Notes under the pieces: generated by a model
What the model saw: only the letters and a program-made list of their open reading frames with translations
What the model was told of the DNA's origin: nothing
The model's database searches: none
DNA from: a virus
Taxonomy: Duplodnaviria > Caudoviricetes
DNA length: 60,725 nt
Reading direction: 5' to 3' (one strand)
IMG/VR virus record: IMGVR_UViG_3300036985_003137
Location: 1 to 60,725 of that record
Part shown: piece after piece, positions 8,101-38,196 of the stretch
Numbering within the stretch: position 1 is the first letter of the stretch
Layout of the letters: the number at the start of each line of letters is the position of its first letter
Translations under genes and position numbers: made by a program

Positions 8101-11100
8101 AGTCATCAAAGTGGGTTAATGCATCTTCAAGTGTATAAATACCAAATTGTTTATTAAATTCAATAGATTCTTCTACTGTTAGGTGTGCTCCTAATAGGTT
8201 TGTCGCAATAGCAGCACCATTAGTTTTACCATCTGATTCTGATGTAATGGTAGTAGTAAAAGAATCATCACCATTATTTTGGGCAAACTGTCTTTGAGCT
8301 AATGCCATTAAACCAGCAAACGCATGTGTATCTGTTTTAGCTTCTTGAACAGTAGCTACTACTATTGATTGATCTTCTTCTGTTAGCGTTCCGTTATCGC
8401 CTTGTTCTAATAACCTAACTAATGCATCAATAGCAGGCTGATATTTAGAGTATTTATTATCCAAATCTTCATTTAATTGAGCTGCAGTTTTAAGGTCTAA
8501 TGATTCAGCAACAAATTGCTCAAATACATCCATCTTTAAAGTATCAGATCCATCAAGCTTAATTGTTGTTTCCCAAGATTTATGGGACATGAGCCATCTT
8601 ATAACTTTACTAGACTGAGGATTAAAGACTTGACCTACAATCCCAGTACGTTGTTGTACGTACATTTCAGTTGAAAAGAATACTGCAATATCTTCAAGAC
8701 TGGGGTACCCTGCCATGAATCCTTTTAATTTATTTATGCTATCAAGTATGCCTTTTTGAGATGCTTCTACTCCAGGCATAAGATCAGCATGTACTAGTGG
8801 ATGTGTTCCACTAGGTGAGTATAAAGCAACATTTCCTGCTATGAGCTCTTGGTTCGTATCACTAAACCCCATGAAGGCACGTGATGTAGTAGCTGCAACG
8901 CCATAAGCTACTTTGTTTTCTGCTGCTATGTCATCACGAATTCTGCTAGGTACAATATGGTTATTGTCCTGTACATAATTAAAAGCTTCTGTACGTATAA
9001 TTTCAGCCTCTTTTTCATTGTCAAAAAGCTTAGATATAAATTGTTTAGAGGTCCTATTATAGATGATTAGTTCAGATACCTTATCAGATAACCTGGTTTT
9101 ACCATTTACTGGAGCCCCTTGTGCTAATTTAATAAAGGAGTGCGGTTTCTTCTGATCAGCTGTCTTTTGAGCTGGTGGTAAATCCTTATAGTATTTTGAG
9201 TCCTGAGCCAGTTGAATGTCCATCTCGGATATTTCAAAAGATTCCAAGTACTTATCTTTTATAAGAGCAGCAATAACTCTTCCACCAATAGACGTAGCTA
9301 GTTCGGGTGAAATATTATCAGGTGTTGCACTATTCTCTTTAATTGCTAACAATTTGAGTACGGTTTGTCCGATCTCATTTGCGGCTGCATTCTGTGTTGA
9401 CGTGGCCTCAGGAAATAACCTCAATAGTGCGACAGGTGTATTTTTTTCTTTCCGACCTACTAGAGCATTAGCCATATCTCCTGTAGGGATCCTACCTTCT
9501 AAAGACACAATATAGCTGTATGCACTAGCAGCAAATGCAGAAGCTAAGTTATCATCTATACTTAAAGTACCATCCTCTTCTACATTAATAAGGTCACTAG
9601 ATCTGTCTCTTCTTTCATTTGTTGGGGTTGATTTTATATTAACAATATTACCACCTTTGGCCGTGAAACCCTGTGCACTGAAACCAGCTAATATAGTATT
9701 ACTTAGGTCAGTTTTTAAGTCTCTAAAGTGCTTAAAGGCATCATTCTGTTCTTTTGTTACATCTTGACCTTTATTCAATTTAATAAGGGCAGCTATAGAC
9801 TTAATTGAGGATATAACATCTCGTGTTTTAGTTAATACAGTACTACCTAATTTTTGTATTAGGGTTTCTGACGTACGGTCTTGTATGCGTTTATCAGCTT
9901 TAGCTTCATCAGTTTGGTTATACTCACGGCCTGCAATAAGGCTTGATAATTCAGATGATTTGGCAGGGAATTCTGCTATCTCAGCTTCATGTTTAATCTT
10001 TAAGGCAGCAAGAGCTTTTTCATATTTCTCAATGTCTTGCTCTGTTCTATCGTTTTCATCACCTAAGTCCCGAATCTCTTCAGCGTGTCTTTGATATAGT
10101 GCTTCTTCTAACTTATCGACTTCATTAGGGACTCTTGTAGTAACTACTGCTTCTGGGTTATTGGTTACTGCTTTTTCCTCAGCTATCATCTTATTTAATG
10201 CATCTGGATCTGGGGTAGTATTATCTTCCTCAAATGTAGTGTCTTCTTCTGTACTAATATTACCTGGATCTTGGGTATTGGTAGTTGTACCTGTAGTGCT
10301 ACTGTTTGTCTTTCCAGGTGCGGTCCAGAGTGAGTATTTAATACCTTCTATGGTTTCCTGGGGTGTTTCGGTATAGCTTTTAGATTCTAATAAGGCTGCA
10401 GCTCGTTTTTCACCTGCCTGTGGATCTGTTGTTTCGTTGTGAGCATCTTTATCTCTTTGGTCTTTATCAAAGGTCATAAAGCTTGCCCCTTTCTCAATAC
10501 CAGCATTAACACTTTTTGTTATATTTTTGTGGTCAAATTCCTTATTCACATTGAGAAATATCACATCATCTTTGGAATAAACTGTTGAGTTTACAATATC
10601 TAAGGAACTCTTCGTTGCATGATCTCGCCACTGTTTAGTAATGAATGCAGATATTGATTTTTTACCTTTCGCCTCTTCCCCAATAATATGTGTTGCTATA
10701 TTAGATAAGGCTATATTTGTCTTATTCTTAGCATTAGCTGGGAGTGTTACCGTAATTTCCTTACCTACAGGTGTTTTAGCTGTGTTATTAATAGATTCAG
10801 TAGCACCTCCTTCTGTACCTACACTATCTGTTGATTTAACTACTGGTGGGTTACTAGTAGTAGCTTTTGTATTAGTAGTAGTAGTAGTAGTAGTAGTAGG
10901 TGGCACTATTGGTGGAGGGGCACTTGTAGTAGGGGCAGCAGTCTTACCTGTAACATGGCCTAACATTGATTTTAGATCATGTACTTCTTGTTGTATTCTT
11001 CCATAAGGACTGATGCCTGTTGCTAAGGTTTTTTGAAAGGTGTCATCTCCGACAGTATAATTACCTGGAACAGCTTGAGCTTCTATACCATCAATTAGGT

Positions 11101-13348
11101 CTGTAGGGGCATACTGTTTCCATACTTGACTATCTTTCTCACGAATAAGAGTAATCTTATCTTTCCCTTCCTTCTTACGACGCACATTAGCAGCTACAAT
11201 GGCTTCATCTTTTGCAGCTTGTCCTTCTACAAATTTTTGAAATAGTGCTTTGCTGGCAGTCTTTTCTTCTGGTGTAGCAGTAGGATCATTGATAGCATCC
11301 CAATGTTGACGCATACCCATATTCTTAGAAGATCCATCATAAATCTCATTGGACACAGCATTAGTATCTTTACCTTGATTCCGCTTATTTAGTGTCATTC
11401 TCAAGAGAGCGGTATCTACATCACTGAACATGCTTATATCTTTTTGACCCATAGCTAATGCTGTTGCTGCTTGTGCTTTAGTCAATCGACTACTCATAGC
11501 CAAACTAAGAACACGATTCTTAGCCTTAGTTACTACTTCAGGGTCAGCATGTGTAAGATTATCTACTGCCTCATTAGTACTTTTCTCAGAATTTACTTCT
11601 CCGTGTATCTGATCTAAGGTTGATTTAAGGGAGTCATAATTTACTTGTGCAGACGTTTCTTTTGCTTTTAATGCCGTAACATATCCGGTCATGCTGGGAT
11701 CTGACAGTGCTGCTAATTGATCTTGTTTAAGTTTTATGACTACATCTGCTTCTGCTACCCGCTCTATATTACCCGCTGCCTCTTCAGTCTTCTTAATACC
11801 TTGAAGGTTTGTAATTGTGGTATTAAGACCTTCCTCACTTAATATCTTAGATATATCTGTGACCTTTTTCTTAGCTACTGCAACAAGCTCATCTGCACTT
11901 TTTATTGCTTCGTCATGTATCTCAGTTATTTTTTCAGGTGTATACGGAGTTGTTCCTTCCTTAGGAGGTGCATTTGTATCAATAACACGTTGATGTAATC
12001 CAGTCATTGCTTCTTCAGGTGTAAGAGGAGAGTTAGAGTCTGCTGCTCCTGATATGTCACCTGATTTAGCTACAGCAGCTATACGGTCAGAGCTTTGTTT
12101 ATTCACTTCTGCATACGTACCTGCCTGCTCCTCTGTACTAGCTTGTTGTTCTTCTTTAGTTGTTTTTAATTTATCAACTACAGCATCTTTTGCTACTACA
12201 GCAGTATCTTTAGCTCCATTCATAGCTCTTACAGCCATGTGTGTTCCAGTAGCTTGTCCTAGTGAGGATACTCCTTCTAATACTGCTGATTTAGGATCTG
12301 CTACTCCAGTAGCTGCATATTGACCTGAGTATTCACCTAAACCTTCAGAACCCATTTCTAAGCCTACGCCTGTTGCTGCAGATTTAACTTTACCCATTAG
12401 TGCTTGTGATGCTAATAAGTTAACGTCAGAAGCAATCTCTGCTTTAATTGCAGGTTTAGCCAGCACATCCGATACTAATTTAGGATTAAGTAGATCACTT
12501 GGTGCCATTCGTTTAGCTAGTACATTTTCAGTAGCAGTACGTAAAGGTGCATTTAATAGTGCACCTCCTAAACCTATAGTAGCTGTATCTACAGCACCAA
12601 TAACCCCGCTTTTAATTAAATTTTCTTTTAAGAGTTCATCTCTATTTTGATTAATAAACTGTTGGGCTTCTTGGTTATCCCAAATATTTACACCCTCTTT
12701 TTGAATCATGTTTTGGAGTAACTCATTTTGTCCTGATGCCATATTGCCAAATGTTGCTCCAGTGTATACACCAGCTGCCGTTCCTAAAGGATTTCCTGTA
12801 AGACTGCCTAATGCTCCCCCAATAGCCATGCCCCCCATTGTAGGAATAGAGTTGGGAATTTGCTCTACAACTCCACCCCCTAATGCCTTAAAGTTTTCCC
12901 ATAGAGCATTTGCACCTTTACCAAGAGTTGGTGCATCAGCGCTGTCTCGATAGATGTTCTTAGCTACATCAGTAATACCCTGTCCGGCTGCGGCAAAGGA
13001 TTGTGTATTACCTTCTGCGTCCTTAGCTGCATCATATAAAGCAGATAACTCTCGAGCTGCTGCTGATGATGGATTAGCTTGTCTATATCTCTCGTCTGCT
13101 TGTAACTGTTTAACTGCTGCTTCAGCATCCTTATTGATCAAGTTTATACCCTGATTAAAGGACGAATCTAGGTTGTGCATCCCTTTTTCCCAAGGGCTGT
13201 CTGCCACTGCAGCTAGCGCATTTTGCTGATTAACGGCTGCTTCAGGGCTTAATATATAAGCCTTAAATGCTTCAGTTTTCTGTTGTGCCGCTACTGCAAC
13301 TTCTAGTGCTTTTTGTGTAAAAGTATCTTGAGATATTGGGGATGCCAT
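2192..13348 (-). CDS. virion-encapsidated RNA polymerase (N4 gp50-like vRNAP)
   Basis: 3718 aa; motif A ESDGKTNG, motif B RxxxKx7FG, motif C NLFDA; HELIH zincin-like motif; no Cys seen on reading; position after structural genes. Confidence 0.95.
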   Translation of the reverse strand: MASPISQDTFTQKALEVAVAAQQKTEAFKAYILSPEAAVNQQNALAAVADSPWEKGMHNLDSSFNQGINLINKDAEAAVKQLQADERYRQANPSSAAARELSALYDAAKDAEGNTQSFAAAGQGITDVAKNIYRDSADAPTLGKGANALWENFKALGGGVVEQIPNSIPTMGGMAIGGALGSLTGNPLGTAAGVYTGATFGNMASGQNELLQNMIQKEGVNIWDNQEAQQFINQNRDELLKENLIKSGVIGAVDTATIGLGGALLNAPLRTATENVLAKRMAPSDLLNPKLVSDVLAKPAIKAEIASDVNLLASQALMGKVKSAATGVGLEMGSEGLGEYSGQYAATGVADPKSAVLEGVSSLGQATGTHMAVRAMNGAKDTAVVAKDAVVDKLKTTKEEQQASTEEQAGTYAEVNKQSSDRIAAVAKSGDISGAADSNSPLTPEEAMTGLHQRVIDTNAPPKEGTTPYTPEKITEIHDEAIKSADELVAVAKKKVTDISKILSEEGLNTTITNLQGIKKTEEAAGNIERVAEADVVIKLKQDQLAALSDPSMTGYVTALKAKETSAQVNYDSLKSTLDQIHGEVNSEKSTNEAVDNLTHADPEVVTKAKNRVLSLAMSSRLTKAQAATALAMGQKDISMFSDVDTALLRMTLNKRNQGKDTNAVSNEIYDGSSKNMGMRQHWDAINDPTATPEEKTASKALFQKFVEGQAAKDEAIVAANVRRKKEGKDKITLIREKDSQVWKQYAPTDLIDGIEAQAVPGNYTVGDDTFQKTLATGISPYGRIQQEVHDLKSMLGHVTGKTAAPTTSAPPPIVPPTTTTTTTTNTKATTSNPPVVKSTDSVGTEGGATESINNTAKTPVGKEITVTLPANAKNKTNIALSNIATHIIGEEAKGKKSISAFITKQWRDHATKSSLDIVNSTVYSKDDVIFLNVNKEFDHKNITKSVNAGIEKGASFMTFDKDQRDKDAHNETTDPQAGEKRAAALLESKSYTETPQETIEGIKYSLWTAPGKTNSSTTGTTTNTQDPGNISTEEDTTFEEDNTTPDPDALNKMIAEEKAVTNNPEAVVTTRVPNEVDKLEEALYQRHAEEIRDLGDENDRTEQDIEKYEKALAALKIKHEAEIAEFPAKSSELSSLIAGREYNQTDEAKADKRIQDRTSETLIQKLGSTVLTKTRDVISSIKSIAALIKLNKGQDVTKEQNDAFKHFRDLKTDLSNTILAGFSAQGFTAKGGNIVNIKSTPTNERRDRSSDLINVEEDGTLSIDDNLASAFAASAYSYIVSLEGRIPTGDMANALVGRKEKNTPVALLRLFPEATSTQNAAANEIGQTVLKLLAIKENSATPDNISPELATSIGGRVIAALIKDKYLESFEISEMDIQLAQDSKYYKDLPPAQKTADQKKPHSFIKLAQGAPVNGKTRLSDKVSELIIYNRTSKQFISKLFDNEKEAEIIRTEAFNYVQDNNHIVPSRIRDDIAAENKVAYGVAATTSRAFMGFSDTNQELIAGNVALYSPSGTHPLVHADLMPGVEASQKGILDSINKLKGFMAGYPSLEDIAVFFSTEMYVQQRTGIVGQVFNPQSSKVIRWLMSHKSWETTIKLDGSDTLKMDVFEQFVAESLDLKTAAQLNEDLDNKYSKYQPAIDALVRLLEQGDNGTLTEEDQSIVVATVQEAKTDTHAFAGLMALAQRQFAQNNGDDSFTTTITSESDGKTNGAAIATNLLGAHLTVEESIEFNKQFGIYTLEDALTHFDDYKSKGGKDLYMNTAMQAVVRLTAAATKGIKLKITKYKTQHVLGKQVLITLRAIEHFIGKMKKENTNDPSDSLREVVKEPILMFFFGAGINTALVKTSSDFIITIKDVISKAYASRELENAETRASIITALNTIAALHPQHSGTYTPIPANTSALKLMGYIQKGENIIQDPSPIFNHGLETAIRATYEITIGKSITDSMKVTFEHFLEHTKKINTAVRIMGTIAANQYEKRVAASISKGTLEFVKDQTKGVTMEFSGTLDPNNISDTRRALEGLSNEEMDKILDGMILEGGLPMLPTASSDPDNIYTGMLLMEDTNIPDDNRNHDINVITGADKIQSKLYAAMVRRFGPMAVATISRMTHSFDSAVMYLAREKARKDGVVTLNLFDAAVGGIDGLPIMTKYLNEAFLELMISYSPTQALADTIERQIVWLSKQDLTTEELDSINDMVATESKKLGWTNLADMHRDLQAQAISVDRVKLEALNATGSANQYSRNGAEALVTDEYRESIEKKLSEINKPKDMAALNKATHKLGMSITPSTLIDTLQKATTFGEIHEELKAALSVEKEEAYKLKLLEQIVPLLPDNLEIYYLDPEVDGEAHTYKDDLGRFISDEDGQRIIIMTPKMGQTDSIAAVLLHELIHASIANTIDKSQQGITLGSDSLNIKARNAINSLERLRTSIEEANPGLVEQYGDFLAQPNAVTSKEAKFAMLQEFVAHGLTDTDFQKNVLNKIKGVISKRWEQFTNAVKHLLGLTDKDATGLRTFIDDISDLIDVAKETKEVYQANLNLPMKANATTNFSTTETFDALSSNTTDAAFETHLKSLLNSVVTKLHGPFGVIKSAIKSKKLDAAGVWKRNASENLTPLSKELVKSGLVTDSKQAFVMEQVYATIAAFGKGNELHTFQAYRDLRALYESVRTTLTPNEFYGSDFGTTSTKEAEHLYDSIFKVTLNAEGKSDYLARFAAVGLTNPGFHALLDKHVVNKTSKGKQSWAKKLQSIFEKILDAIHGWTSTHESSLSNHRLDTLISKLVDTELSYQAVLELQREAEASPIRDVESKLDKLANAAGKSVITGLDSHFVQHNRFVLVRAIAGLVKKHVSHKQQEFLSMMLTLLNDPKKGSKLGVVAGLINNVKGYDQWVELLRLGRDLLDKDRKTMIDSTTKNVLETFVNKGKNLTPAVKNAITAVVLKSNMSALLKGYSLQEMQNLLADPTKLEEHITAQSLELKNALTSSDATYNQMLTNAEGLGYYSATGEVKVKVLKRNVYQIIHSFGEANNKLTQTKIDEIEPMVSKLATLFTLRHTPEVDRAAVSEVMKIEAARPKEEVNGMEYALLMHAHLAHIELTNIYDSDPSKAPFGNIHEKYNPFTKIRVGDDKEGKRLRELGYEQVGELQRDPDDADQSPRHYYVQRDMKPPSQVGGVMQMGSNSSTEVRVTTGEQNLNTPEGLKEAEARAHIKSKRSSMKAATYAIAFNPNIAEAYMAPEYNSEGVITNWVYLMSENMKNSVLERRNSFDAVLGTLAGSLLGKQSTEEHNKEAMKALFDNFTASNAVDRQKMVEVGPKSEDAELRSIWYRLPEKTKAAALDIFGNEHIMVNNQTLDMVFGYRKVSMAAPFERANNERAHRLEAGQSDNIMDLKSINIIQKLVISFVEESLEMSAKARGKSPAEAKRYAKRAAMFVTRAEAGWQEIVSDMKDKIVVVSGTVLLGNIFSNVSRLMLEGIPLKNMAHYFSVAFKGATQYLNDKKHLDALLLKKELGRATKEDERQIIQLQDAIKRNPVTPLIEAGLLPTIVEDLDADAEFGFRTQLEKQFDIMSEGIPASALTALKAVLMTRESGAYKALAHITQLSDFVARYAMYQHQMNKTNPMVHIDAVARANSAFVQYSTPMQRTLQYSDDMGFTLFTKYFLYIQKELVRISKEQPGRVMTMLLFNQLVHLGPVITDSSLIHHAGYNPLRDGVFGYWDSLYKRMTIGLLV
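10874..10897. repeat. (AGT)8 microsatellite encoding poly-Thr linker in vRNAP
   Basis: agtagtagt... gives TTTTTTTT on minus strand within a Pro/Thr-rich linker. Confidence 0.9.
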
Positions 13349-29045: not shown

Positions 29046-29735
29046 CTAAATATCAATAATAGAATCTTCATCAATCAATTGTAGCTTGGAACCAGCAATA
29101 CTACCAGCAGTCATCTGCCCAGCTTGCATCACCAATCTCTGATTTGCTACCAACTCCATTGTAGCCATTCTAAGGGCATTAATAGAGCTATCCTCCTTCA
29201 TTGTGATATCTAGCTCCACTTTCTTAATGTCAGGCATCCTCAAGTGCGTAAGCAAGCTATTTGCAGCATCAGTCCTAACTTTCTCACTATTAGCACCCAC
29301 CATCAACTCAGCCTGTACATTCAGTGCCTTCTGATACAAATCTTGATTCAACACATAATGCGGAATCAACGTCTGCTCATAAATCAGATTAACCAGCTTA
29401 GATTTATTATATGCAGTGACATAACTAGCCACATCTTTACTAGCAACATTAGTAGCAGCAAACCTAATAATCTTATCAGGGAATGTCCTACTATATGCAT
29501 CTATATTAGTACCACCACTAAGTTTATGACTGACATACTTCACAGCATTAATATAATCTCCAATTTTAAATCTACCATCTGCCATTACCTTTGTATAACT
29601 CAAGAGATTATCCCTATAAGCCTCATACAAGTCAGGATCACTAAGGGTATGATTAATCTGATCAATCAATTCCTGATTAACACTCTTCTTCACTTTATCG
29701 GGTAAAGCACTCTTAAACTGTTCTACTGTTAACAT
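29046..29735 (-). CDS. terS: terminase small subunit (N4 gp69-like)
   Basis: YINAVKYVSHKL, YSRTFP, YNKSKLVNLIYEQTLIP, SEKVRTDAANSLLTHL. Confidence 0.85.
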   Translation of the reverse strand: MLTVEQFKSALPDKVKKSVNQELIDQINHTLSDPDLYEAYRDNLLSYTKVMADGRFKIGDYINAVKYVSHKLSGGTNIDAYSRTFPDKIIRFAATNVASKDVASYVTAYNKSKLVNLIYEQTLIPHYVLNQDLYQKALNVQAELMVGANSEKVRTDAANSLLTHLRMPDIKKVELDITMKEDSSINALRMATMELVANQRLVMQAGQMTAGSIAGSKLQLIDEDSIIDI

Positions 29736-29739
29736 CTCT

Positions 29740-29866
29740 ATCCTAGGGTTGGGGGAATAATTCTATAATATTTTTTAGGACTTAAGTATTACTACATCTT
29801 AGGAGTGGGATAATTTTTAAATTTGCCTACTACCTCATACTTATCTTAGGAATTGGGGATTTTTTC
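29740..29866. repeat. three imperfect direct repeats near probable genome end
   Basis: ATCCTAGGGTTGGGGGAATAATT (29740), ATCTTAGGAGTGGGATAATTTTT (29796), ATCTTAGGAATTGGGGATTTTTT (29843). Confidence 0.6.
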
Positions 29867-29953
29867 AATCTTAGTACCAACCCCATATTCACACACACAT
29901 GCGTCCACAAGACGCATACCCCCCCAGTGACATACTAAGCATCCTTATCGTAT

Positions 29954-29976
29954 GGTGCCTTACGGCACTTAGAGCA
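29954..29976 (+). promoter_or_regulatory. putative vRNAP hairpin promoter, class A
   Basis: GTGCC-TTAC-GGCAC then T-TAGAGCA; upstream of first early gene. Confidence 0.6.
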
Positions 29977-30008
29977 GATCTTACTGCTCAATCACTATGG
30001 GGTATATC

Positions 30009-30203
30009 ATGTCTTTAATCAATCAAGTTACATCAATCGCATCAGACTCACTATCAGTTGTATCAGGCCTCGTTAGTGCAGCAGCCAAGGCTACTAACTC
30101 AATCAACCATGTAGCATCTACTGTTGAACGTGTTACTTTAGCAGTCGATATCGAGACTACTAAACGTATCTCTGATTATCAGCAATCATTACTAGACGCC
30201 TAA
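30009..30203 (+). CDS. early protein, N4 gp1-like amphipathic helix
   Basis: GGGG RBS then ATG at 30009; Ser/Ala/Val amphipathic pattern; first gene after terminus. Confidence 0.6.
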   Translation: MSLINQVTSIASDSLSVVSGLVSAAAKATNSINHVASTVERVTLAVDIETTKRISDYQQSLLDA

Positions 30204-30208
30204 ACCTA

Positions 30209-30244
30209 TATGCTCACTATACCCTAACCGGTGTAGTGGGCATA
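30209..30244 (+). other. long RNA stem-loop with G-U pairs and no U-tract
   Basis: TATGCTCACTATACC-CTAACC-GGTGTAGTGGGCATA followed by A-tract. Confidence 0.6.
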
Positions 30245-30306
30245 AAAAATCTCACACATTCACACAGCATAGGATAGTCTCGGGAGGAACAAGATAGTTC
30301 TTCCTC

Positions 30307-30328
30307 TCTGTCTGTCTGTCTGTCTGTC
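30307..30328. repeat. (TCTG)5 microsatellite
   Basis: tctgtctgtctgtctgtctgtc just upstream of second class A hairpin. Confidence 0.9.
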
Positions 30329-30339
30329 TCTAAAGCATT

Positions 30340-30361
30340 GAGGCTTACGCCTCCTAGAGCA
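30340..30361 (+). promoter_or_regulatory. putative vRNAP hairpin promoter, class A
   Basis: GAGGC-TTAC-GCCTC then C-TAGAGCA; same loop, spacing and downstream 7-mer as 29954. Confidence 0.6.
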
Positions 30362-30420
30362 TGTTTGTGCATGCACCTGTCCACTTTCGGATACACGTTT
30401 TACCTATCAGGAGAATTATC

Positions 30421-30957
30421 ATGGCATTGCCAACAAGAGCAGCACGAGTAACAGCATCTAAATCTTCACGTCAAGATGCGTGGAAATTAGCGAATAAAGC
30501 GTTAGCTTTTCTTAACATTAACCTCACAGGTAAATCTACTGTGAAACTAGGTGCATTGAGCTTGCGTGAATCTAATTCATTCGAGAAGTCTATGTTTGAC
30601 AAGATTGGAGGTGATGCTGCCAAAGCTGCCAGATTGAAAGATGTGTTTGTACTTACATATAACAGTGTGAATTCAGGCAGCACAGGTTTAGATTTCCTTG
30701 ATGATCTAGATTATGTGGGAGATGTTACAGATGGGGATTCTACAAGAAACGTCATTGGGTATTTAAACTTTGCGATGCCTACAGGTGATGCAACCACACG
30801 AATTGGATCAATTGCCTTATTAAACAATAATCCTACACATCTGAAGCTAGATGTGTGGTTAAATCAAGATGCATCCAATTTAGATAAATTGCAAGACAGT
30901 ATGACTGTGGTTTATCACAGTTCTACGCCAGAGGCACGTGAATGTCCTGAATGGTAA
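30421..30957 (+). CDS. Drc-like ssDNA-binding RNAP II cofactor, two tandem domains
   Basis: AGGAG RBS, start MALPTR; AFLNINL...KLGALSL and GYLNFAMPTGD..TRIGSIAL...H..L recall LUZ7 Drc; early position. Confidence 0.6.
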   Translation: MALPTRAARVTASKSSRQDAWKLANKALAFLNINLTGKSTVKLGALSLRESNSFEKSMFDKIGGDAAKAARLKDVFVLTYNSVNSGSTGLDFLDDLDYVGDVTDGDSTRNVIGYLNFAMPTGDATTRIGSIALLNNNPTHLKLDVWLNQDASNLDKLQDSMTVVYHSSTPEARECPEW

Positions 30958-30965
30958 ATTGAGTT

Positions 30966-31000
30966 AAGCCAGTGCCCTAGCAATAGGGTATTGGCTTTTT
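30966..31000 (+). terminator. intrinsic terminator
   Basis: AAGCCAGTGCCCTA-GCAA-TAGGGTATTGGCTT then TTT. Confidence 0.85.
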
Positions 31001-31036
31001 AAATACAGATAGTCAGTATTTTATTTATCCTTTACT

Positions 31037-31052
31037 GCGTTCTCCGAACGCT
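31037..31052 (+). promoter_or_regulatory. putative vRNAP hairpin promoter, class B (N4-like GGA loop)
   Basis: GCGTTC-TCC-GAACGC; template strand carries C-GGA-G triloop; identical 16-mer at 35170. Confidence 0.7.
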
Positions 31053-31087
31053 CTTTCCCTTTTTTATTAATTAGTCTGGAATTATTT

Positions 31088-31318
31088 ATGTTTAAAGCAT
31101 TATTAGGTTTTACATCTGCGGCATTACAAACTGCAGAAAAGTCATTGGATGTATTAAATACAGGTATTGATGCTGCAGGTAATGTAGTCAGTGCTGCAGA
31201 GAAGATTACTAAAGTGGTAGACAATGAAGCAAGTGTGTTGAAAGGATACCATGACATCAGAGTCACATTGACTACACGTGAGCAAGAAATGCTTTTATTA
31301 GCTCTACAAGACGTGTAA
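31088..31318 (+). CDS. early protein, gp1-like amphipathic helix
   Basis: 76 aa, same pattern as 30009 ORF; GGA RBS. Confidence 0.65.
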   Translation: MFKALLGFTSAALQTAEKSLDVLNTGIDAAGNVVSAAEKITKVVDNEASVLKGYHDIRVTLTTREQEMLLLALQDV

Positions 31319-31327
31319 TTAACCACT

Positions 31328-31354
31328 AAGGCTAGTATTTCTACTAGCCTTTTT
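31328..31354 (+). terminator. intrinsic terminator
   Basis: AAGGCTAGTA-TTTC-TACTAGCCTT then TTT. Confidence 0.8.
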
Positions 31355-31373
31355 ACTTTAACCGGAGATAGTC

Positions 31374-32306
31374 ATGCAAGCACAGATTGAACAGCACTAC
31401 AGTAAAGACAAAATAAGACGAATGATGAAATCATTCATTGTCGATAACATTGAGCCAGAGCAGATTGAACAAGGTGTAAAGCTGTTAACTGAGTGGATAA
31501 ATGTTGATTATTATCCCAGTAAGAATCGTAGATTGTTACATGTACGTGATTTAGATTTATCTAAGATAGTTGTTGATGTAATAGTAGGCACACTATCATT
31601 TACTGAAGAAACATTGCTTACAAATGCTGTAGGACAGTTAGCAGGTTTATTAAAGATGTCTGACAAGTTAGATAGTATTAAAACTATGTCAGAAGTATTG
31701 GCTATCTTATGTGAGCTTGATTTATATGATCTAAATAAAGATGATGAAACTGATAGCTGGACTATTATCAGTTTAATTGAACTACCTGAAGAAATCCAAG
31801 ACCAACAAGTACGTAGTATGTACCTTCCTCCAATGATTGTTAAGCCAGAAATACTTACACATAATATGGATAGTGGGTATCAGACACAGCATTCTAGTTT
31901 GATCTTAGGTAGTGGAAATTACCATGAAGGAGACATTACATTAGATGCATTGAACATTATGGCATCAGTACCCTTGAGTATAAATATCGAGTTTATCAGC
32001 ACTATTAAAGAAGAGCCAAATAAAGAAATCTCAGCTGATTTGATATTAGAAGATTACCCAGAATTAACAGATGAAGAGGCTATTGAAGAAGCAAAGTTTA
32101 GGATTGCTATGTTTGATAGATTTGTAAAACAGTCACAAGAAGTATGTGATTTATTGATTGAGACTGGGAATAAATTCTATCTAAATCAAAAGGTTGATAA
32201 AAGAGGTAGAGTATATGCACAAGGATATCATGTAAGTACAGCAGGTGCATCGTACAAGAAAGCAGCAATAGAGTTATACAACGAAGAAATAGTAGAAGGC
32301 ATTTAG
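31374..32306 (+). CDS. RNA polymerase II subunit 1 (N4 gp15-like)
   Basis: YLPPMIVKP, SGY...SLILG, DKRGRVYAQGYHV (T7-type DxRGR motif). Confidence 0.92.
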   Translation: MQAQIEQHYSKDKIRRMMKSFIVDNIEPEQIEQGVKLLTEWINVDYYPSKNRRLLHVRDLDLSKIVVDVIVGTLSFTEETLLTNAVGQLAGLLKMSDKLDSIKTMSEVLAILCELDLYDLNKDDETDSWTIISLIELPEEIQDQQVRSMYLPPMIVKPEILTHNMDSGYQTQHSSLILGSGNYHEGDITLDALNIMASVPLSINIEFISTIKEEPNKEISADLILEDYPELTDEEAIEEAKFRIAMFDRFVKQSQEVCDLLIETGNKFYLNQKVDKRGRVYAQGYHVSTAGASYKKAAIELYNEEIVEGI

Positions 32307-32341
32307 ACCTTCACATTTAATAATAAAATCGGAGTGTTAAT

Positions 32342-33069
32342 ATGTTCAAAAGATATAGTGGATGGCAGTGGATGTTAATCAATGCAGCAAATTTAGCAGG
32401 CAAAGATAAATTAACTCATGAACAAAGATTAGATTGGGCTACAGAAAATTTAGGTAAATTGGAAAGTCTTGTAGACGAAGCAGGTAGTGATTACCCACAG
32501 TATATCTCTGCTGTCATGGGTATTAGAAAAGCACAGAATAAACATCCTACAGGACTCTTAGTTACTGTAGATGCAGTATGTAGTGGTATGCAAATAATGA
32601 GTGCTTTAACTGGGTGTTTAAATGGTGCTAAGGCTACTGGATTAGTTGATGATGATCGTAGACCTGATGCATATGCAAGTGTTACAGAAGCCATGAATAA
32701 GAAATTAGGTGGCACACTAAATATCAGTCGTGATGATGCAAAGAGGAGTGTTATGACCTCATTTTATGGTAGTGAGAAAGTACCAGGAGAAGTATTTGGT
32801 GAAGATACAATTGAGCTAGATACTTTCTATGAAGTCATGCAACTAGTAGCACCAGGAGCTTGGGGACTGTTAGGTAAGCTAAAATCAGCTTGGAATCCAG
32901 GTGCATTAGCACATTCATGGAAATTACCAGATGGATTTGATGCTGTAGTTAAGGTCATGGCATCATTTGAGAAGCGGATTGAAGTAGATGAGTTAGATCA
33001 TTCCACATTCACATACTACTACAGCGAAAACCAAGGTAATAAGAAAGGTATTAGTCTTGTAGCTAACGT
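32342..33069 (+). CDS. RNA polymerase II subunit 2 (N4 gp16-like), exon 1
   Basis: KDKL...RL.W, motif A DAVCSGMQI, motif B RDDAKRSVMTSFYGS, W.LPDGF; ends SLVANV. Confidence 0.92.
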
Positions 33070-34125
33070 AGAGTAACTGCGTCACTCATTTGAGAAAATG
33101 AGCAGAAAACAAGGTGAATTGCTGGAACGCTAAGGGAGAAATCCTATGCCAATCAGCAGGTAAGCTTAGAGAGTAATCTCTTTGAAACTTCAGAGACTAG
33201 AACGAGAAGCCTGTATACAGGTCAATAATGTTCGTAGGATACTCAAGTGAGATCCGAAGTGCCTTGCTCCTACTGGAAACAGAGGATGAAGATATAGTCC
33301 GATACTCCAACGAAAGCTGGAGACTTAATATAAATAGTTCTATCCTTAAGCATCTAAGCAGTGTACTATTACATTGATTTAATTAATAAGGAGAAGAGAT
33401 GAAAACCGTAACTGTAAGAGCTAAAAGACCTATAGTTGATATAGCACAAGAACGCTTTGGATCATTAGTAGCCAAAGAGTTTAGTCATAAAGATGCTATT
33501 GGGAATGTATATTGGATTTATACCTGTGATTGTAACAAGTTGCTCACAGCTAGATCCAATGTGATTAAACACCAAACTATACTAAAAAATGATCCTGAAT
33601 TACCTTCATGTGGTTGCGTAGGAATTGCCAGAAAAACAAGGCATGGATATCGCACAGCAAAGAACACACACCCATTATACAGAGTCTACAGAGGCATGAT
33701 GGGTAGATGTTATAGCGAAAGTAATGAAGGAGCTAAGTGGTATGGTGATATTGGTGTAACTGTATGTGATGAGTGGAAAAATAACCCTGAAGCATTTATT
33801 AAATGGGGTTTAGATAATGGATGGAAGCCGAGTCTACATATAGACAAAGATATTCTATCTGAACAGCTATCAATTCATCCTCACATATACAGCCCACAGA
33901 CGTGTCAGTTTGTATCAGCAAAAATCAATGTAGGTTTTGCAACAAACAGGGACAATTACGGTAAGCACCCTAATGTAAAATTATCTCATGATGATGTAGA
34001 AGCTATTAATATTTTAAGAGCTAAAGGATTATCAGGACCTAAGATTGCAGAACAATTTGGTGTTACAGCATGTTCTATTTATGCAGTAATTAAGGGCTAA
34101 GAGAAGCGTCTTAGCTTAACATTTG
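33070..34125 (+). mobile_element. group I intron (IA-type core) with homing endonuclease
   Basis: P1 ACGU/AG...CUGCGU with U-G at splice site; P2 with GAGA loop; P AATTGCTGGAA, Q AATCAGCAGG, R TCAGAGACTA (33190), S AAGATATAGTCC (33289); terminal G 34125; splicing restores ANVVHSIDA. Confidence 0.93.
33399..34100 (+). CDS. intron-encoded HNH-family homing endonuclease with C-terminal HTH
   Basis: FGSLVA...CDC...SCGC...RCY...YGDIGVTVCDEW...HIDKD...YSPQTCQFVS...N; HTH IAEQFGVTACSIY; AAGGAG RBS. Confidence 0.85.
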   Translation: MKTVTVRAKRPIVDIAQERFGSLVAKEFSHKDAIGNVYWIYTCDCNKLLTARSNVIKHQTILKNDPELPSCGCVGIARKTRHGYRTAKNTHPLYRVYRGMMGRCYSESNEGAKWYGDIGVTVCDEWKNNPEAFIKWGLDNGWKPSLHIDKDILSEQLSIHPHIYSPQTCQFVSAKINVGFATNRDNYGKHPNVKLSHDDVEAINILRAKGLSGPKIAEQFGVTACSIYAVIKG

Positions 34126-34639
34126 AGTTCATAGCATTGATGCATTTATTATGCGTGAGATGCACAGAAGATGTAATTACAACCAAGATACGCTTATGGA
34201 TGTTAGTAACCTAATTGAAATTGAGTTACTATCCAGAGAACTAATGAAGCCAGATATATTAGGTAAGAAGTCTCAAGCTACGTATTATGAAGAGTTGTAC
34301 CGTTGTAGTGGTGTTTGTAGTATAGCAGCTGTAAATCATATCACTAATACTACGGTTAAAGGCTTAGATAGTACCTATTTAGGTGAAATGAGTAGAATTA
34401 TCAACATGATCCTAGAACATAAATCCTTTGAATTGGTCTCATTACATGATGCATTTTCAGCTCATGCTAATAATGTAAACCAAGTAAGATGGCATTATAA
34501 AGAGATCTTAGCTGAATTAGCTGACAGTAACACTTTGAGAGATGTTCTAACTCAAATCAATCCACGTATGGAACAGTTTCAGAAGTTGTCTAATACTCTA
34601 TCTGAAAAGATTAGACAGAGTAGTTATGCACTTACATAG
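34126..34639 (+). CDS. RNA polymerase II subunit 2, exon 2
   Basis: (V)VHSIDAFIMREMHRRC...motif C LHDAF...SSYALT; spliced CDS 1242 nt = 413 aa. Confidence 0.92.
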
Positions 34640-34645
34640 TATTAC

Positions 34646-34677
34646 AGGTGGTATTGAATTACTCAGTATCACCTTCT
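34646..34677 (+). terminator. stem-loop/terminator after RNAP II
   Basis: AGGTGGTATTGA-ATTAC-TCAGTATCACCT, weak T-rich tail. Confidence 0.55.
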
Positions 34678-34707
34678 ATTTCTAATCAAATAACTTAAGA
34701 GAATAAA

Positions 34708-34956
34708 ATGAAAGCGATATTATTATTAACAATGCAAATGTTATCAGTACAGACTTCAATGGATATCAAAGGTGGTTATGTTGCTGAAGATAGAAGAACA
34801 CTATCAACTACTACAATTGAGTACGCATCAATTACTGCATGTAGAAATGGTAGAGAAGAGCTACAGCTAGCCTTTGGAGCCTACCAAATGTCTAAAGTAC
34901 ACACGAATATCATGAGTGCAGTTTGCATCGATACAGACACAGGATCAGTACAATGA
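34708..34956 (+). CDS. hypothetical protein, possible signal peptide
   Basis: 82-aa ORF with hydrophobic N-terminus and two Cys. Confidence 0.6.
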   Translation: MKAILLLTMQMLSVQTSMDIKGGYVAEDRRTLSTTTIEYASITACRNGREELQLAFGAYQMSKVHTNIMSAVCIDTDTGSVQ

Positions 34957-35153
34957 ACAATTATAAACATGTAATTGCTGTTGCTTTAGTGGGCTTCATT
35001 ATTGGAGCTGTAGTTAGTATTGTGGTGTATCCTATGACACATAAAGGGTATCACGAAGTACTTAAAACGAATATTGGAGAATTTATCTTAAGAGAAGGTA
35101 AAATCTACACAGTATATGAAATGCAAAGAGATATGATGACAGGTGGAAAATAG
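34953..35153 (+). CDS. small membrane-anchored protein
   Basis: ATGA overlap start MNNYKH; one TM segment. Confidence 0.6.
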   Translation: MNNYKHVIAVALVGFIIGAVVSIVVYPMTHKGYHEVLKTNIGEFILREGKIYTVYEMQRDMMTGGK

Positions 35154-35169
35154 TATTATGATCATGAAG

Positions 35170-35185
35170 GCGTTCTCCGAACGCT
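35170..35185 (+). promoter_or_regulatory. putative vRNAP hairpin promoter, class B
   Basis: GCGTTC-TCC-GAACGC-TTTTG; identical core to 31037. Confidence 0.65.
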
Positions 35186-35192
35186 TTTGTGG

Positions 35193-35214
35193 TTTTTTTT
35201 TTTTTTTTTTTTTT
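35193..35214. repeat. T22 homopolymer
   Basis: 22 consecutive T in intergenic DNA. Confidence 0.9.
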
Positions 35215-35399
35215 GTTAAAAAGATAGTCAACTAGAAGTTCTCAAATACTTCTTACCGATATACTAATAAAGTCAAATAATGAATTTTGACTATATACAG
35301 CCGATACTCTAAAACTAATATACTAATATATTTAGTTAAGTATATAATACGTTGAGATTTACCTTATTACCCTAGTTCTCCTAAAGAACTCTCCCACTC

Positions 35400-35429
35400 G
35401 CCTCTGTTTTATAACAGGGGCATTTTTTT
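35400..35429 (+). terminator. intrinsic terminator
   Basis: GCCTCTGTT-TTAT-AACAGGGGC then A and T7. Confidence 0.8.
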
Positions 35430-35449
35430 ATCTAATCTAAGAGTTATAC

Positions 35450-35647
35450 ATGTCAGATAATGAAATACCACCATATTATTGTGACTATCTTGATATAGAT
35501 GGTCAAAGAAGTAGACTATTACTACACCCAATTAAGGTTTGGTTTGGTATTACTAATGAGTTTACTGAAGCCACATGGCTAATGTCAGCAGTAAATGTAG
35601 TAACAGATGAAGAAGTTATTCTATCAATGAGCCACATCAATGTTTAA
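35450..35647 (+). CDS. small WYL-like domain protein
   Basis: R...P..VWFG.T.....WLMSA.N pattern resembles stand-alone phage WYL-fold proteins. Confidence 0.45.
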   Translation: MSDNEIPPYYCDYLDIDGQRSRLLLHPIKVWFGITNEFTEATWLMSAVNVVTDEEVILSMSHINV

Positions 35648-35689
35648 GATACTCCAGTTTTTTTAATTTTATTTTTATAGGTACAGTAG

Positions 35690-36103
35690 ATGTCACCAAC
35701 AATTTCATGTGTAGGAACAATACCTACCAAAACTTATCCAACAGATGCTGGATTTGATCTCATAGCAAGCAGAGATATTATAATTCCTGCCAGAGATAGC
35801 GCTATTATTGGTACAGGTACCCATATTAGTATTCCTTTAGGTTATGTAGGTTTAATTTGGAGTCGAAGTGGACTCTCTTGTAAACATAAACTTGAGGTAG
35901 GTGCAGGATGCATTGATTATGGATATACAGGTGAATTATTAGTTCATTTACACAATTTATCTGATACCCTTTATGATGTACATAAGGGAGATAAGATTGC
36001 ACAACTTTTAATTATGCCTATACTACTTCCTACATTTGAATCAGTAGACAAACTACCTGAAGCAGATAGAGGAAATAATGGATTTGGAAGTACTGGTAAA
36101 TAA
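35690..36103 (+). CDS. dut: trimeric dUTPase
   Basis: AGFDL, SRSGL, GCIDYGYTGEL, KIAQL, RGNNGFGSTG. Confidence 0.95.
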   Translation: MSPTISCVGTIPTKTYPTDAGFDLIASRDIIIPARDSAIIGTGTHISIPLGYVGLIWSRSGLSCKHKLEVGAGCIDYGYTGELLVHLHNLSDTLYDVHKGDKIAQLLIMPILLPTFESVDKLPEADRGNNGFGSTGK

Positions 36104-36107
36104 CCCA

Positions 36108-36183
36108 GGGACAATAGCACAATGGTTAGTGCTCTGACCTCATAAGTCAGCGGTTATAGGTTCAAGTCCTATTTGTCCCACCA
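36108..36183 (+). tRNA. tRNA with CAU anticodon (Ile2 or elongator Met)
   Basis: Acceptor GGGACAA/TTGTCCC, D stem GCAC/GTGC, anticodon CTGAC-CTCATAA-GTCAG, T arm ATAGG-TTCAAGT-CCTAT, encoded ACCA. Confidence 0.93.
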
Positions 36184-36225
36184 ACAGCTTTAAAAACTAA
36201 GTCAAATAAAAAGGAGGTGAATATC

Positions 36226-36303
36226 ATGGCAAAAGCTAAACCAATGAAAAAAGATAAAGATGGCGATATGGATGGAAGTAAAAAGAAAAAAGAGAAATGT
36301 TAA
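36226..36303 (+). CDS. 25-aa Lys/Asp-rich micro-protein (not in ORF track)
   Basis: AAGGAGGTGA SD 5 nt before ATG; MAKAKPMKKDKDGDMDGSKKKKEKC. Confidence 0.6.
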   Translation: MAKAKPMKKDKDGDMDGSKKKKEKC

Positions 36304-36317
36304 AGTCCTCTTAAAGT

Positions 36318-36665
36318 ATAGCTCAGGTCACAGAGAGTATAACTTGTGATGACAGCTGGAAAGACAGCACCATCAAGATACTAGTTCTTTGAAACACACA
36401 CCTGGATTCAGCTTTGGTAAGTGGCTCGCTGATTCTAAGTCGGTGCGGATAAACGGAAGGTGTTCTAACTTACTCCCTTTTCTACGCGAAGGACTAGTAC
36501 CTTGATAGTCCTGATAGGCTAAATACCCGTTTCTCCGAGGGTTTATTCGGAGAGTCTATATTTAAGGACTCTACTTAGAGTATTTAAATGCAGGCAACTG
36601 CAGATCCAAGAACTTCGGAATAGGGATGGGATCTCCTCCAGCCTGTAGAGGCTAAATACAGGCAC
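36318..36665 (+). ncRNA. structured non-coding RNA(s), family not recognised
   Basis: Long-ORF-free; many stems with G-U pairs: 36372-36391/36487-36506, 36398-36403/36458-36463, 36507-36520/36553-36570, TGCAG-GCAA-CTGCA, GCCTGTA/TACAGGC. Confidence 0.6.
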
Positions 36666-36673
36666 TATTATTC

Positions 36674-36695
36674 ACCCACATAAGTGGGTATTTTT
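36674..36695 (+). terminator. intrinsic terminator
   Basis: ACCCAC-ATAA-GTGGGT then ATTTTT. Confidence 0.7.
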
Positions 36696-36709
36696 ATATC
36701 TGGAGTTTT

Positions 36710-37033
36710 ATGAACGAACCAATAACAGGTATCAAGCACGACCAAGGTAAGGCACCCTTACACTTGTTAAACCAGGAAGCACTAATTGAGACTGCTAAAG
36801 TCTTTGGATATGGTGCACAGAAATACTCTGCAAATAACTGGCGTAAAGGTATCAATTTAACCCGCATATTAAATGCAGTAGAAAGACATTGTATGGAATT
36901 ACAGCAAGGTAATGATATTGATGAAGAATCAGGATTACCACACGCTGCTCATGCAATTGCAGGGCTCATGATGTTCATGGGCATTAATAAACACTCACCA
37001 GAATATGATGACAGGTATAAGAACCATGATTAA
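36710..37033 (+). CDS. dATP/dGTP diphosphohydrolase (DUF5664-like)
   Basis: GIKHDQGK...GAQKY..NNWRKG...RH...DEESGLPHAAHA. Confidence 0.85.
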   Translation: MNEPITGIKHDQGKAPLHLLNQEALIETAKVFGYGAQKYSANNWRKGINLTRILNAVERHCMELQQGNDIDEESGLPHAAHAIAGLMMFMGINKHSPEYDDRYKNHD

Positions 37034-37139
37034 TGCAGAATGGGTAAATTTAAGTTTATTAGTTTTAGGTACTCTCTGGGTATTTGGATTCATTCAATTT
37101 GGTAAAACGGAGAGAGATAATGACAACACGAGCAGATAA
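37026..37139 (+). CDS. 37-aa single-TM micro-protein (not in ORF track)
   Basis: Overlaps upstream stop and thyA start; MINAEWVNLSLLVLGTLWVFGFIQFGKTERDNDNTSR. Confidence 0.45.
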   Translation: MINAEWVNLSLLVLGTLWVFGFIQFGKTERDNDNTSR

Positions 37140-37956
37140 AATCTATCTTGAGCTTTTACAAATGGTTCTACAAGATGGGGATGAAGTTACAACTAGAAAT
37201 AGTGAATGCTACTCCCACTTTAATTTACCTAATGTAACATTTACTGAGTTTCCTTTAGTTACTCTTCGTAAAACTGCAGCAATGAAATCTATTAAGGAAA
37301 TGGAATGGTTTCTTAGTGGTAAAGCAGAATGTCCTACAGAGTTACTTGATTGGTGGTCTGGTCAGTTAGATGCGTTTAATAACTTAATAAATGGGTACTC
37401 TATTCAGTTTAGACATTCAACTAGCTACATGGATAATGAATCAACTCTTTTTGATCAAGTTGAATTTATCCATAACGCTTTAAAAACAAATCCAAATAGC
37501 AGAAGATTAGTAATGTCTGTATGGAACCCTGGAGAAATGGCAGATATTGTTACTGCTAATAATAACCCTAACACACCCACCTGTTGTCATTCCATTGTAG
37601 TGCAGTTCTTTGTTCGTTCAGGACATCTTCATATGAAGACATACCAACGTTCAGCAGACATGCTATTAGGGGTACCACACAACTGGGCACAGTCTTGGGC
37701 AATGTTAATGTACTTTGCTAAACAATCAGGATTAGAAGTAGGCTCAATGACATGGATGTGGGGAGATGCTCATATTTATAAGGAACAAAGTCATCTTGAT
37801 ACTATTAACCAGTTATTAAACACATCTAAAGATCTATCAGGTCACCCAATTTCATTAGTATATTCCAATACATCAGAAGAGTTTAGTGCATCAGACTTTA
37901 AGATTTCAGGTATTATCCCTGACCCTGTAGTAACAATTAGACCAAAACTGTTGTAA
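37120..37956 (+). CDS. thyA: thymidylate synthase
   Basis: FPLVTLRK, EMEWFLSG, SRR..WNP, PTCCH, YQRSADMLLGVPHN, GDAHIY; probable ATG 37120 after GGAG. Confidence 0.9.
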   Translation: MTTRADKIYLELLQMVLQDGDEVTTRNSECYSHFNLPNVTFTEFPLVTLRKTAAMKSIKEMEWFLSGKAECPTELLDWWSGQLDAFNNLINGYSIQFRHSTSYMDNESTLFDQVEFIHNALKTNPNSRRLVMSVWNPGEMADIVTANNNPNTPTCCHSIVVQFFVRSGHLHMKTYQRSADMLLGVPHNWAQSWAMLMYFAKQSGLEVGSMTWMWGDAHIYKEQSHLDTINQLLNTSKDLSGHPISLVYSNTSEEFSASDFKISGIIPDPVVTIRPKLL

Positions 37957-37962
37957 AGAATC

Positions 37963-38196
37963 ATGGCTATTTCTTATCAGGATATTTCAAATCGTTTAAA
38001 TGTAACAAAGAAACAGGTGGAAATGGCAGTCTATAGTGGAATGCTTCCTCCACCTTCTAACATAGATAAGTGGGATTCACATCATGTTGAATTCTATATT
38101 AACGAATGGGCTGCTAAATTAGCTAGAGCTAATCCTAAAGCAGATAATAAATGTATTACTTACGGAAATTATACATTTCCAAGACATCAAAGATGA
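37963..38196 (+). CDS. AlpA/Xis-like winged HTH protein
   Basis: DISNRLNVTKKQV....SG.LPPP...W. Confidence 0.6.
   Translation: MAISYQDISNRLNVTKKQVEMAVYSGMLPPPSNIDKWDSHHVEFYINEWAAKLARANPKADNKCITYGNYTFPRHQR

Follow-up and report, generated by a model that had tools for sequence, protein, structure and literature searches.

That mobile group I introns occur in conserved phage enzymes is textbook knowledge, and I-HmuI, the endonuclease encoded by the intron of the Bacillus phage SPO1 DNA polymerase gene, nicks one strand. Closely related situations have been described in other phages. The HNH endonuclease of an RNA polymerase (RNAP) intron in PhiPA3 / PhiKZ-like phages interferes with a co-infecting relative (Birkholz et al. 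2024, PMC11620839), an N4-like Vibrio phage has a group I intron in td (Katharios et al. 2017, PMC5746245), and HNH genes split gp24, the DNA polymerase gene and gp43 (Fouts et al. 2013, PMC3670811). A homing-endonuclease element, not called an intron, has been reported inside the RNAP2 gene of phage ZC08, and endonuclease insertions were proposed as the cause of polymerase splits (Amgarten et al. 2017, PMC5418858). The family review PMC7650795 has no mention of homing endonucleases, RNAP2, split or interrupted genes, and among open-access papers and preprints, supplements aside, we found none describing a group I intron in N4-type RNAP II. Here, we have analysed the IMG/VR virus record IMGVR_UViG_3300036985_003137 (60,725 bases, hereafter the window), in which the gene for the large subunit of an N4-type RNAP II is interrupted at 33070..34125. 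The interrupting element is very probably a mobile, IA-type group I intron that is spliced out to give a frame of 413 amino acids (aa) and carries a putative I-HmuI-like open reading frame (ORF) that would serve its mobility.

The two exons lie on the plus strand. Exon 1 (32342..33069) codes for residues 1-242 of the large subunit, ends two bases into codon 243, and matches Pfam RNA_pol (5.4e-17). In the ORF list it appears as the frame 32342..33076 with the C-terminus ...SLVANVE*, the unspliced stop being the TAA at 33074-33076. Exon 2 (34126..34639) completes codon 243 with its third base and encodes residues 244-413 up to the stop codon; the downstream frame is open only from 34127, with a TGA at 34124-34126. 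Excising 33070..34125 (1056 nucleotides, nt) creates the junction GCT AAC GT|A GTT CAT and a continuous frame of 1242 nt (413 aa + stop) that contains ...SLVANVVHSIDAF... The ligated-exon RNA is predicted to read ...GCUAACGU|AGUUCAU... at this point. The profile of PHROG 2051 (401 positions) divides exactly at 241|242 between the exons, exon 1 corresponding to positions 1-241 and exon 2 to 242-400, and the break is therefore exact. Exons 1 and 2 are likewise contiguous by tblastn in intron-less phages, where both matches abut base to base (MAG4, 7761..8477 + 8478..8990; PASB7, ..40478 + 40479..; Minga_mokiny_4, ..60848 + 60847..). The close IMG/VR relative L003 has a single 412-aa ORF containing ...SLVANVVHSLDA..., identical to the spliced product in 293 of 414 aligned columns (71%), and has no Rfam match.

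The L003 ORF matched the N4 RNAP2 chain (PDB 6DT7_B) end to end, over residues 5-410 (2.7e-40). When the profile of 28 intron-less homologues was compared with T7 RNAP using hhalign (probability 98.3, E 2.1e-14), residues D77, K134, Y142 and H245 were paired with T7 D537, K631, Y639 and H784, respectively, and ANVVHS.D was aligned to T7 PNFVHSQD. H350-D351, invariant across the 28 homologues, is presumably the equivalent of T7 motif C, the hhalign match ending at T7 793. Exon 2 contains both VHS.D and the HD of motif C. The intron is positioned between the invariant N242 and H245 (N-V|V-H), equivalent to T7 N781...H784. Based on these T7 and N4 alignments, the interrupted gene is identified as that of the catalytic (large) subunit of N4-type RNAP II, with polymerase motifs A, B and C. 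Separate translation of exon 2 is unlikely, because its first in-frame ATG is at 34151 and has no purine-rich ribosome-binding site. Some N4-like RNAP2 large subunits (those of L073, L074, L075, L096 and L004) are without approximately residues 262-338, between VHS.D and motif C, and this segment thus appears dispensable.

The intron extends on the plus strand from A33070 to a terminal G34125. Its match to Rfam RF00028 (33031..33322; 69.3 bits, cut-off 50, E 1.5e-15) is the only one to the group I model across all 60,725 bases and is far above chance, identifying 33070..34125 as a group I intron. The internal guide sequence AACUGCGU (33075..33082, plus strand) pairs through its 3' part with exon 1 and through its 5' part with exon 2. 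The resulting P1 has 6 base pairs (bp), 33066-33071 (ACGU|AG) with 33077-33082 (CUGCGU), including the U33069-G33079 wobble, and P10 joins AACU 33075-33078 to exon-2 AGUU 34126-34129. In the IMG/VR locus L004, the guide sequence and the exon ends are identical to those of the window. The ribozyme core occupies 33085..33322 (plus strand). From the RNAalifold consensus mapped to the window and the accompanying pair counts, its helices are P2 (33085-33091/33096-33102), P3 (33110-33116/33260-33266), P4 (33120-33125/33153-33158), P5 (33129-33136/33143-33149), P6 (33159-33171/33178-33189), P7 (GACUA/UAGUC, 33195-33199/33295-33299), P7.1 (33200-33203/33230-33233), P7.2 (33237-33244/33249-33255), P8 (33268-33273/33281-33286) and P9 (33305-33311/33316-33322).

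Covariation was evaluated on the window core and ten related introns from a similarity search (n = 11). Without any prior structure, RNAalifold recovered P2, P3, P4, P5, P6, P7.1, P7.2, P8 and P9, and 42 of the 57 consensus pairs were preserved through changes on both sides. We have then added P7 as a pseudoknot before pair counting, which gave a total of 62 pairs in 13 helices (662 cells). Of these cells 95.5% were paired, and compensatory changes were found in 42 of the 62 pairs. Sliding the 3' partner by 1-3 columns as a control lowered pairing to 33.9-43.5%, and none of 500 shuffles matched any observed pairing measure. P7 was invariant in all 11 introns, its five pairs being uninformative for covariation, and 10 of the 11 pairs of P7.1/P7.2 had changed on both sides. 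The location of P7.1/P7.2 between the P7 5' strand and the P3 3' strand is, in the definition attributed to Michel and Westhof (1990), the mark of subgroup IA; by these helices the intron is assigned to the IA type. A terminal hairpin of 7 bp with the loop GAAGCG (34096..34115, plus strand) includes the ORF stop codon (34098-34100) and ends ten bases 5' of the 3' splice site. By eye, it showed compensatory changes in 6/6 aligned introns. A suspected long-range pairing across the intron ORF was dropped, the covariation being that of the local terminal hairpin.

The stretch is contained in 20 listed sequencing runs, four of them RNA, and we have examined three of the RNA runs together with one DNA run belonging to the same study. 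RNA run X8, a lake-water metatranscriptome, yielded a 1086-nt contig that aligned on 33932..34125 and then on 33070..33961. This contig is a circular permutation of the exact 1056 nt, with 34125 joined to 33070, 194 nt on the shorter side of the joint, zero inserted letters and 0 mismatches. Its ends overlap by 30 nt, as expected for a circular sequence in a 31-mer assembly. The joint slides by two bases, AG being present after both 34125 and 33069, and within this 2-nt ambiguity it agrees with G34125 as the intron 3' end. A DNA contig from the same study was colinear with the window across both exons and the intron, and the X18 and X19 contigs on the stretch were all within the intron. Contig depths (66.1 for the intron vs 14.9-22.5 for exon contigs) are no measure of abundance. 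The simplest reading of the X8 contig is a full-length intron circle, formed by attack of the terminal G on the 5' splice site, rather than a linear intron with an added guanosine, because the extra G is absent at the joint. Hence, RNA with these intron ends does occur in nature, and the joint confirms both boundaries as well as natural ribozyme chemistry. Among the papers listed by a search on full-length circles of group I introns, none had a phage in its title or abstract opening; the X8 contig provides in-situ evidence for such a circle from a phage.

These results agreed with most of the sequence-only reading of this DNA. It had placed a group I intron, with an endonuclease-family ORF, at 33070-34125 (now RF00028, 69.3 bits vs 50, and PHROG 374, 1.6e-39, for the ORF), with cuts after U33069 and G34125 that are backed by the in-frame 413-aa join and the X8 RNA joint. 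The P1 U-G pair and the P10 AACU/AGUU pairing that it described are read in the sequence, P2, P3, P8 and P9 were recovered from the 11 introns and P7 GACUA/UAGUC is present and invariant. Its host gene, the N4-type RNAP II catalytic subunit, was upheld by PHROG 2051, 6DT7_B and the T7 alignments, and its match to T7 PNFVHSQD by hhalign.

The intron ORF (33399..34100, plus strand, 233 aa) is located between P9 and the terminal hairpin, and AAGGAG (33388-33393) precedes its ATG by 5 nt. Its product matched PHROG 374, "HNH endonuclease" (1.6e-39), and the AlphaFold2 (AF2) model had a mean predicted local distance difference test score (pLDDT) of 83.6 and a predicted template modelling score (pTM) of 0.49. 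Relatives with 54-69% identity occupy the same position in the introns of L004, L005 and L006. A tblastn search found relatives in 659 phage records, the best of them in the N4-like Vibrio phage MS02 (38.0% identity, 76% of the query covered) and in Pseudoalteromonas phage pYD6-A (45.8%, 61% covered). Alignment of the window protein with 27 IMG/VR relatives (28 members) revealed an N-terminal Cys cluster, a core of Y..W..M..RC...Y.....V.VCDEW..F..W followed by L.ID(R/K).D...C(R/Q)(W/F), and, at the C-terminus of a few members, a helix-turn-helix; the window protein has all three, its core being I-HmuI-like. We regard it as a putative homing endonuclease, with an activity suggested by its context. 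Readings as an intein or a free-standing endonuclease were rejected, given the ribozyme and an ORF out of frame with the exons. Sigma-70-type promoters inside the intron were no more frequent than chance (19 sites vs 18.2 expected). In a predicted fold of 33338..33398, the ORF ribosome-binding site (33387-33392) is paired with 33343-33348, which recalls the translational repression of T4 intron ORFs; the z-score was only -1.80, and this pairing is not claimed.

The intron bears signs of horizontal spread. Compared with L004, it has 76.7% nt identity (core 84.5%, ORF 74.0%), whereas exon 1 has only 56.1%. In the lake water of run X8, the intron contig had 0 differences from the window and the exon-1 contig had 40/606. 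The ORF identity of 54-69% in L004, L005 and L006 is found alongside exons that are only 39-62% identical. Relative to the intron-less L003, nucleotide identity drops from 89-94% in the flanking genes to 76.6% across the RNAP II genes. These signs fit, without proving, an element moving between diverged phages. The intron ORF product would most likely be what moves the intron, cleaving or nicking intron-less alleles at the conserved site.

Reportedly, the virion polymerase of N4 reads gp15 and gp16 as early genes, and the middle genes are transcribed by RNAP II. As in N4, the injected virion polymerase would presumably transcribe the pre-mRNA. The ribozyme would then fold, guanosine would attack after U33069, and the terminal G34125 would be used at the 3' site, with ligation of the exons to the 413-aa frame. 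Splicing of the early transcript would be required before the RNAP II catalytic subunit could be made; otherwise, translation would stop 7 nt into the intron and give a 244-aa product without motif C. By analogy with N4, middle transcription would depend on this step, as the sequence-only reading had proposed. N4-like phages use a three-polymerase relay, and the intron would place a step catalysed by RNA between its early and middle stages of transcription, where timing might be controlled or the phage be vulnerable. The ORF, with its own ribosome-binding site and a product of the I-HmuI-like "HNH" family, would confer mobility through a cut or nick in intron-less alleles.

Several observations weigh against an intron that splices and moves in this way. 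The X8 contigs do not cover 32979..33069 and 34126..34286, and the spliced and precursor junctions are outside contig cover, which in itself says nothing for or against ligation. The circle reflects ribozyme chemistry at both sites but is no proof of exon ligation, because, according to PMC6274462, a full-length circle is a product of the circularisation pathway, which leaves the exons unligated. Moreover, the evidence for it is one assembled contig from one run, and since RNA libraries can contain chimeras, the joint might be an artefact of assembly or reverse transcription, for instance through a template switch from one linear excised intron to another. We find this decidedly unlikely: with only 2 letters shared at the joint, a 31-mer assembly could hardly have been misled by a repeat, the contig continues for 194 nt on the shorter side of the joint, the extra G expected from a linear intron with an added guanosine is absent, and the ends match the independently predicted splice sites to the base (2-nt AG ambiguity). 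Even an artefact of this kind would mark the ends of excised intron RNA. It is highly improbable that the ribozyme is dead or irrelevant and the gene permanently split, the polymerase then consisting of three polypeptides (the gp15-like, exon-1 and exon-2 products). Such an arrangement would recall how a T7-like enzyme came to be divided between gp15 and gp16, N4 RNAP II already being a two-piece version of a single-subunit polymerase, and it would be compatible with endonuclease insertions as the proposed cause of polymerase splits (Amgarten et al., PMC5418858) and with the ligated-exon RNA not being seen in X8 contigs, which do not cover the exon junction. However, the ribozyme scores above the Rfam cut-off with all helices kept, removal at boundaries that follow the U / terminal-G rules gives back the exact frame, and RNA with both intron ends joined exists. 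Exon 2, with no start before 34151 and no ribosome-binding site, would also lose the invariant H245 and D248.

Other observations weigh against the nuclease assignment. The sole PDB match of the family profile was I-HmuI, with an E of 0.32, aligning ...DH.D......NLRWVT.K.NV of I-HmuI to ...DR.D......NCRW.T...N of the family. A catalytic His is not evident: by eye, the position of the I-HmuI D-H His is K150 in the window product, most of the 28 relatives having Arg there. An Asn (..KIN..) that could bind the metal is present, and H147, two residues upstream, might act as a substitute for the His. At the thresholds applied, neither Pfam nor NCBIfam models matched the window product (Pfam HNH_3 was touched by 2/28 family members, best E 0.069). 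Foldseek of the whole AF2 model vs PDB gave no match at E <= 0.001, with a local helix-turn-helix likeness to the GcrA DNA-binding domain (E 0.89), and phmmer vs PDB gave chance zinc-finger matches only. With no decisive Pfam, NCBIfam or Foldseek match, the nuclease class therefore rests on the PHROG names and the weak I-HmuI match. The absent canonical His, the HNH_3 result and the missing Foldseek nuclease match would suit an intron that splices while its ORF, inherited vertically, is no longer an active homing endonuclease and encodes a decaying or repurposed DNA-binding protein (maturase-like or regulatory). We consider this somewhat unlikely, as the reading frame is intact, the same-place ORFs of three phages are 54-69% identical with exons 39-62% identical, and an intron far better conserved than its exons fits recent horizontal movement. 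Furthermore, the Arg/Lys variant is the rule in a family with 659 phage-record matches and may be an active variant. We retain a spliced, mobile group I intron as the reading of this locus, and infer both ligation of the exons in vivo and nuclease activity on intron-less alleles.

Concerning the genome, the record is a whole IMG/VR virus record with a completeness estimate of 82%, found in sequencing runs of sediment and lake-water metagenomes. A giant gene of 3718 aa (2192..13348, minus strand) matches PHROG 2206 "virion RNA polymerase" (E 0, 1183 bits), and the record therefore belongs to an N4-like phage; it represents most of the genome of an uncultivated one. Directly 5' of the split gene lies that of the RNAP II small subunit (N4 gp15-like, 310 aa, 31374..32306, plus strand), which matches PHROG 2166 "N4-like RNA polymerase" (1.2e-95). 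Terminator-like hairpins at 31328..31351 and 34646..34674 (plus strand) flank this gene pair, with zero inside the intron; the scanned region has 5 vs 1.6 expected. A tRNA gene (36108..36180, plus strand; Rfam tRNA, 72.2 bits) is placed just 3' of a dUTPase-like 137-aa ORF (35690..36103). Window positions 29065..38000 are mosaic relative to intron-less L003: the flanks have 89-94% nt identity, the RNAP II genes (31344..33042) only 76.6%, and two ORFs downstream of them (82 aa and 137 aa) are protein-identical.

We have then surveyed the best 80 of the 107 IMG/VR loci encoding the protein, plus a handful of the 797 phage records with an exon-1 match. Of these 80 loci, 74 were uninterrupted, four were interrupted within a 15-nt stretch encoding N-V-V-H-S, one was interrupted at motif C and one was cut by a contig end. 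The four are L004, L005, L006 and L040, uncultivated N4-like loci which, like the window, have group I introns (70-82 bits) in this stretch. Relative to the window, insertion is at the identical site, with an identical guide sequence, in L004 (position 0), 5 nt upstream (-5) in L006 and L040, as in pYD6-A, and 10 nt downstream (+10) in L005. The L040 intron encodes an ORF different from that of the window, matching PHROG 314 "homing endonuclease". Related ribozymes in the same host gene were also found in ZC08 (Pseudomonas), MIF8 (Erwinia), Moonfish (Shigella), ZQ2 (Escherichia) and pYD6-A, with RF00028 scores of 74-94 bits and, over ~220 nt, 75% (ZC08) and 71% (MIF8) identity to the window. 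Unlike the window intron at N-V|V-H, those of ZC08, MIF8, Moonfish and ZQ2 and the second of pYD6-A are inserted after the H-D of motif C (~residue 351), and the ORFs of these motif-C introns have no tblastn match to the window ORF. The first pYD6-A intron, 5 nt upstream of the window's site, is without an ORF. Both pYD6-A introns (L036, NC_020849.1; 2424..2671 + 2997..3253, 74.1 and 81.7 bits) interrupt one RNAP2 large-subunit gene, the pieces of which are annotated in the record as separate "RNA polymerase" and "hypothetical" genes.

Three further matches were noted. Acinetobacter phage XC38 (L001, NC_055823.1; 2501..4575) has an "endonuclease" gene that divides its RNAP2 large subunit near Y-G-S of motif B, followed by a group I-like match of 38 bits, below the Rfam cut-off, perhaps an intron that has degenerated or diverged. 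Among the ribozymes of the phage collection, the nearest to that of the window (79.1% over 219 nt, 55.7 bits) belongs to Alteromonas phage AD45-P1 (L037, NC_021532.1; 2454..2708), whose intron contains a GIY-YIG nuclease gene and interrupts a gene of unknown function (PHROG 22493 / 22720). A search of the phage collection for near-identical DNA of the split gene found no close relative, only a conserved 50-nt core stretch. It falls in 33115..33167 (P4-P6 region) and shares 94-96% identity with introns of 19 Enterococcus phage records, reflecting a core conserved between very different phages.

The sequence-only reading had also regarded the locus as new, knowing of no such intron in N4-type RNAP II. 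This does not stand in view of the Rfam-positive introns of ZC08, MIF8, Moonfish, ZQ2 and pYD6-A, and it is undercut as well by the published endonuclease insertion in ZC08 RNAP2 (PMC5418858). The window intron changes no concept. What the insertion points indicate is that the RNAP2 large-subunit gene is an under-described intron hotspot, at Y-G-S of motif B, at three positions around N-V-V-H-S and after H-D of motif C, in cultured phages of Pseudomonas, Escherichia, Shigella, Erwinia, Acinetobacter and Pseudoalteromonas. The interrupted gene is usually annotated as two genes, "RNA polymerase" or "hypothetical", and annotators and phage-therapy genome curators should join the split RNAP2 pieces. 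The hotspot pattern across three catalytic motifs and the natural circle are the parts most worthy of follow-up.

A bolder view, which we hold to be speculative and unlikely, is that the RNAP II catalytic subunit is a mobile-intron battleground (at least 5 positions, three motifs and at least 3 unrelated endonuclease families), in which the window intron is spreading with its endonuclease as a weapon and the circle is a possible ORF template or reverse-splicing vehicle. If true, the intron would currently be spreading between diverged freshwater phages. By analogy with the jumbo-phage polymerase intron, the window endonuclease may attack intron-less relatives, as the sequence-only reading had suggested; cutting their RNAP II gene during co-infection would block the early-to-middle switch. 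The full-length circle, containing the complete ORF and its ribosome-binding site, could then be a stable endonuclease template or a vehicle for reverse splicing.

Among known systems, the SPO1 DNA polymerase intron with I-HmuI (PDB 1U3E) resembles the window in being a group I intron of a phage polymerase gene that encodes an HNH-family endonuclease. Its host gene is a DNA polymerase, the D-H His of I-HmuI is Lys/Arg in the window family, and the match between the two is weak (E 0.32). The T4 nrdD (sunY) intron is, like that of the window, of the IA type with an ORF 3' of the core, far from the 3' splice site; host gene and ORF family differ. Full-length circles of Didymium iridis introns resemble the X8 contig in having the terminal G joined to the first intron base with no letters lost, but come from eukaryote nuclear ribosomal DNA introns, unlike the phage intron of the window (PMC6274462). 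Finally, in the PhiPA3 / PhiKZ-like system, as in the window, the intron of an RNA polymerase gene encodes an endonuclease (PMC11620839). There, the enzyme is the multisubunit polymerase of a nucleus-forming jumbo phage, whereas in the window it is a two-piece enzyme of the single-subunit type.

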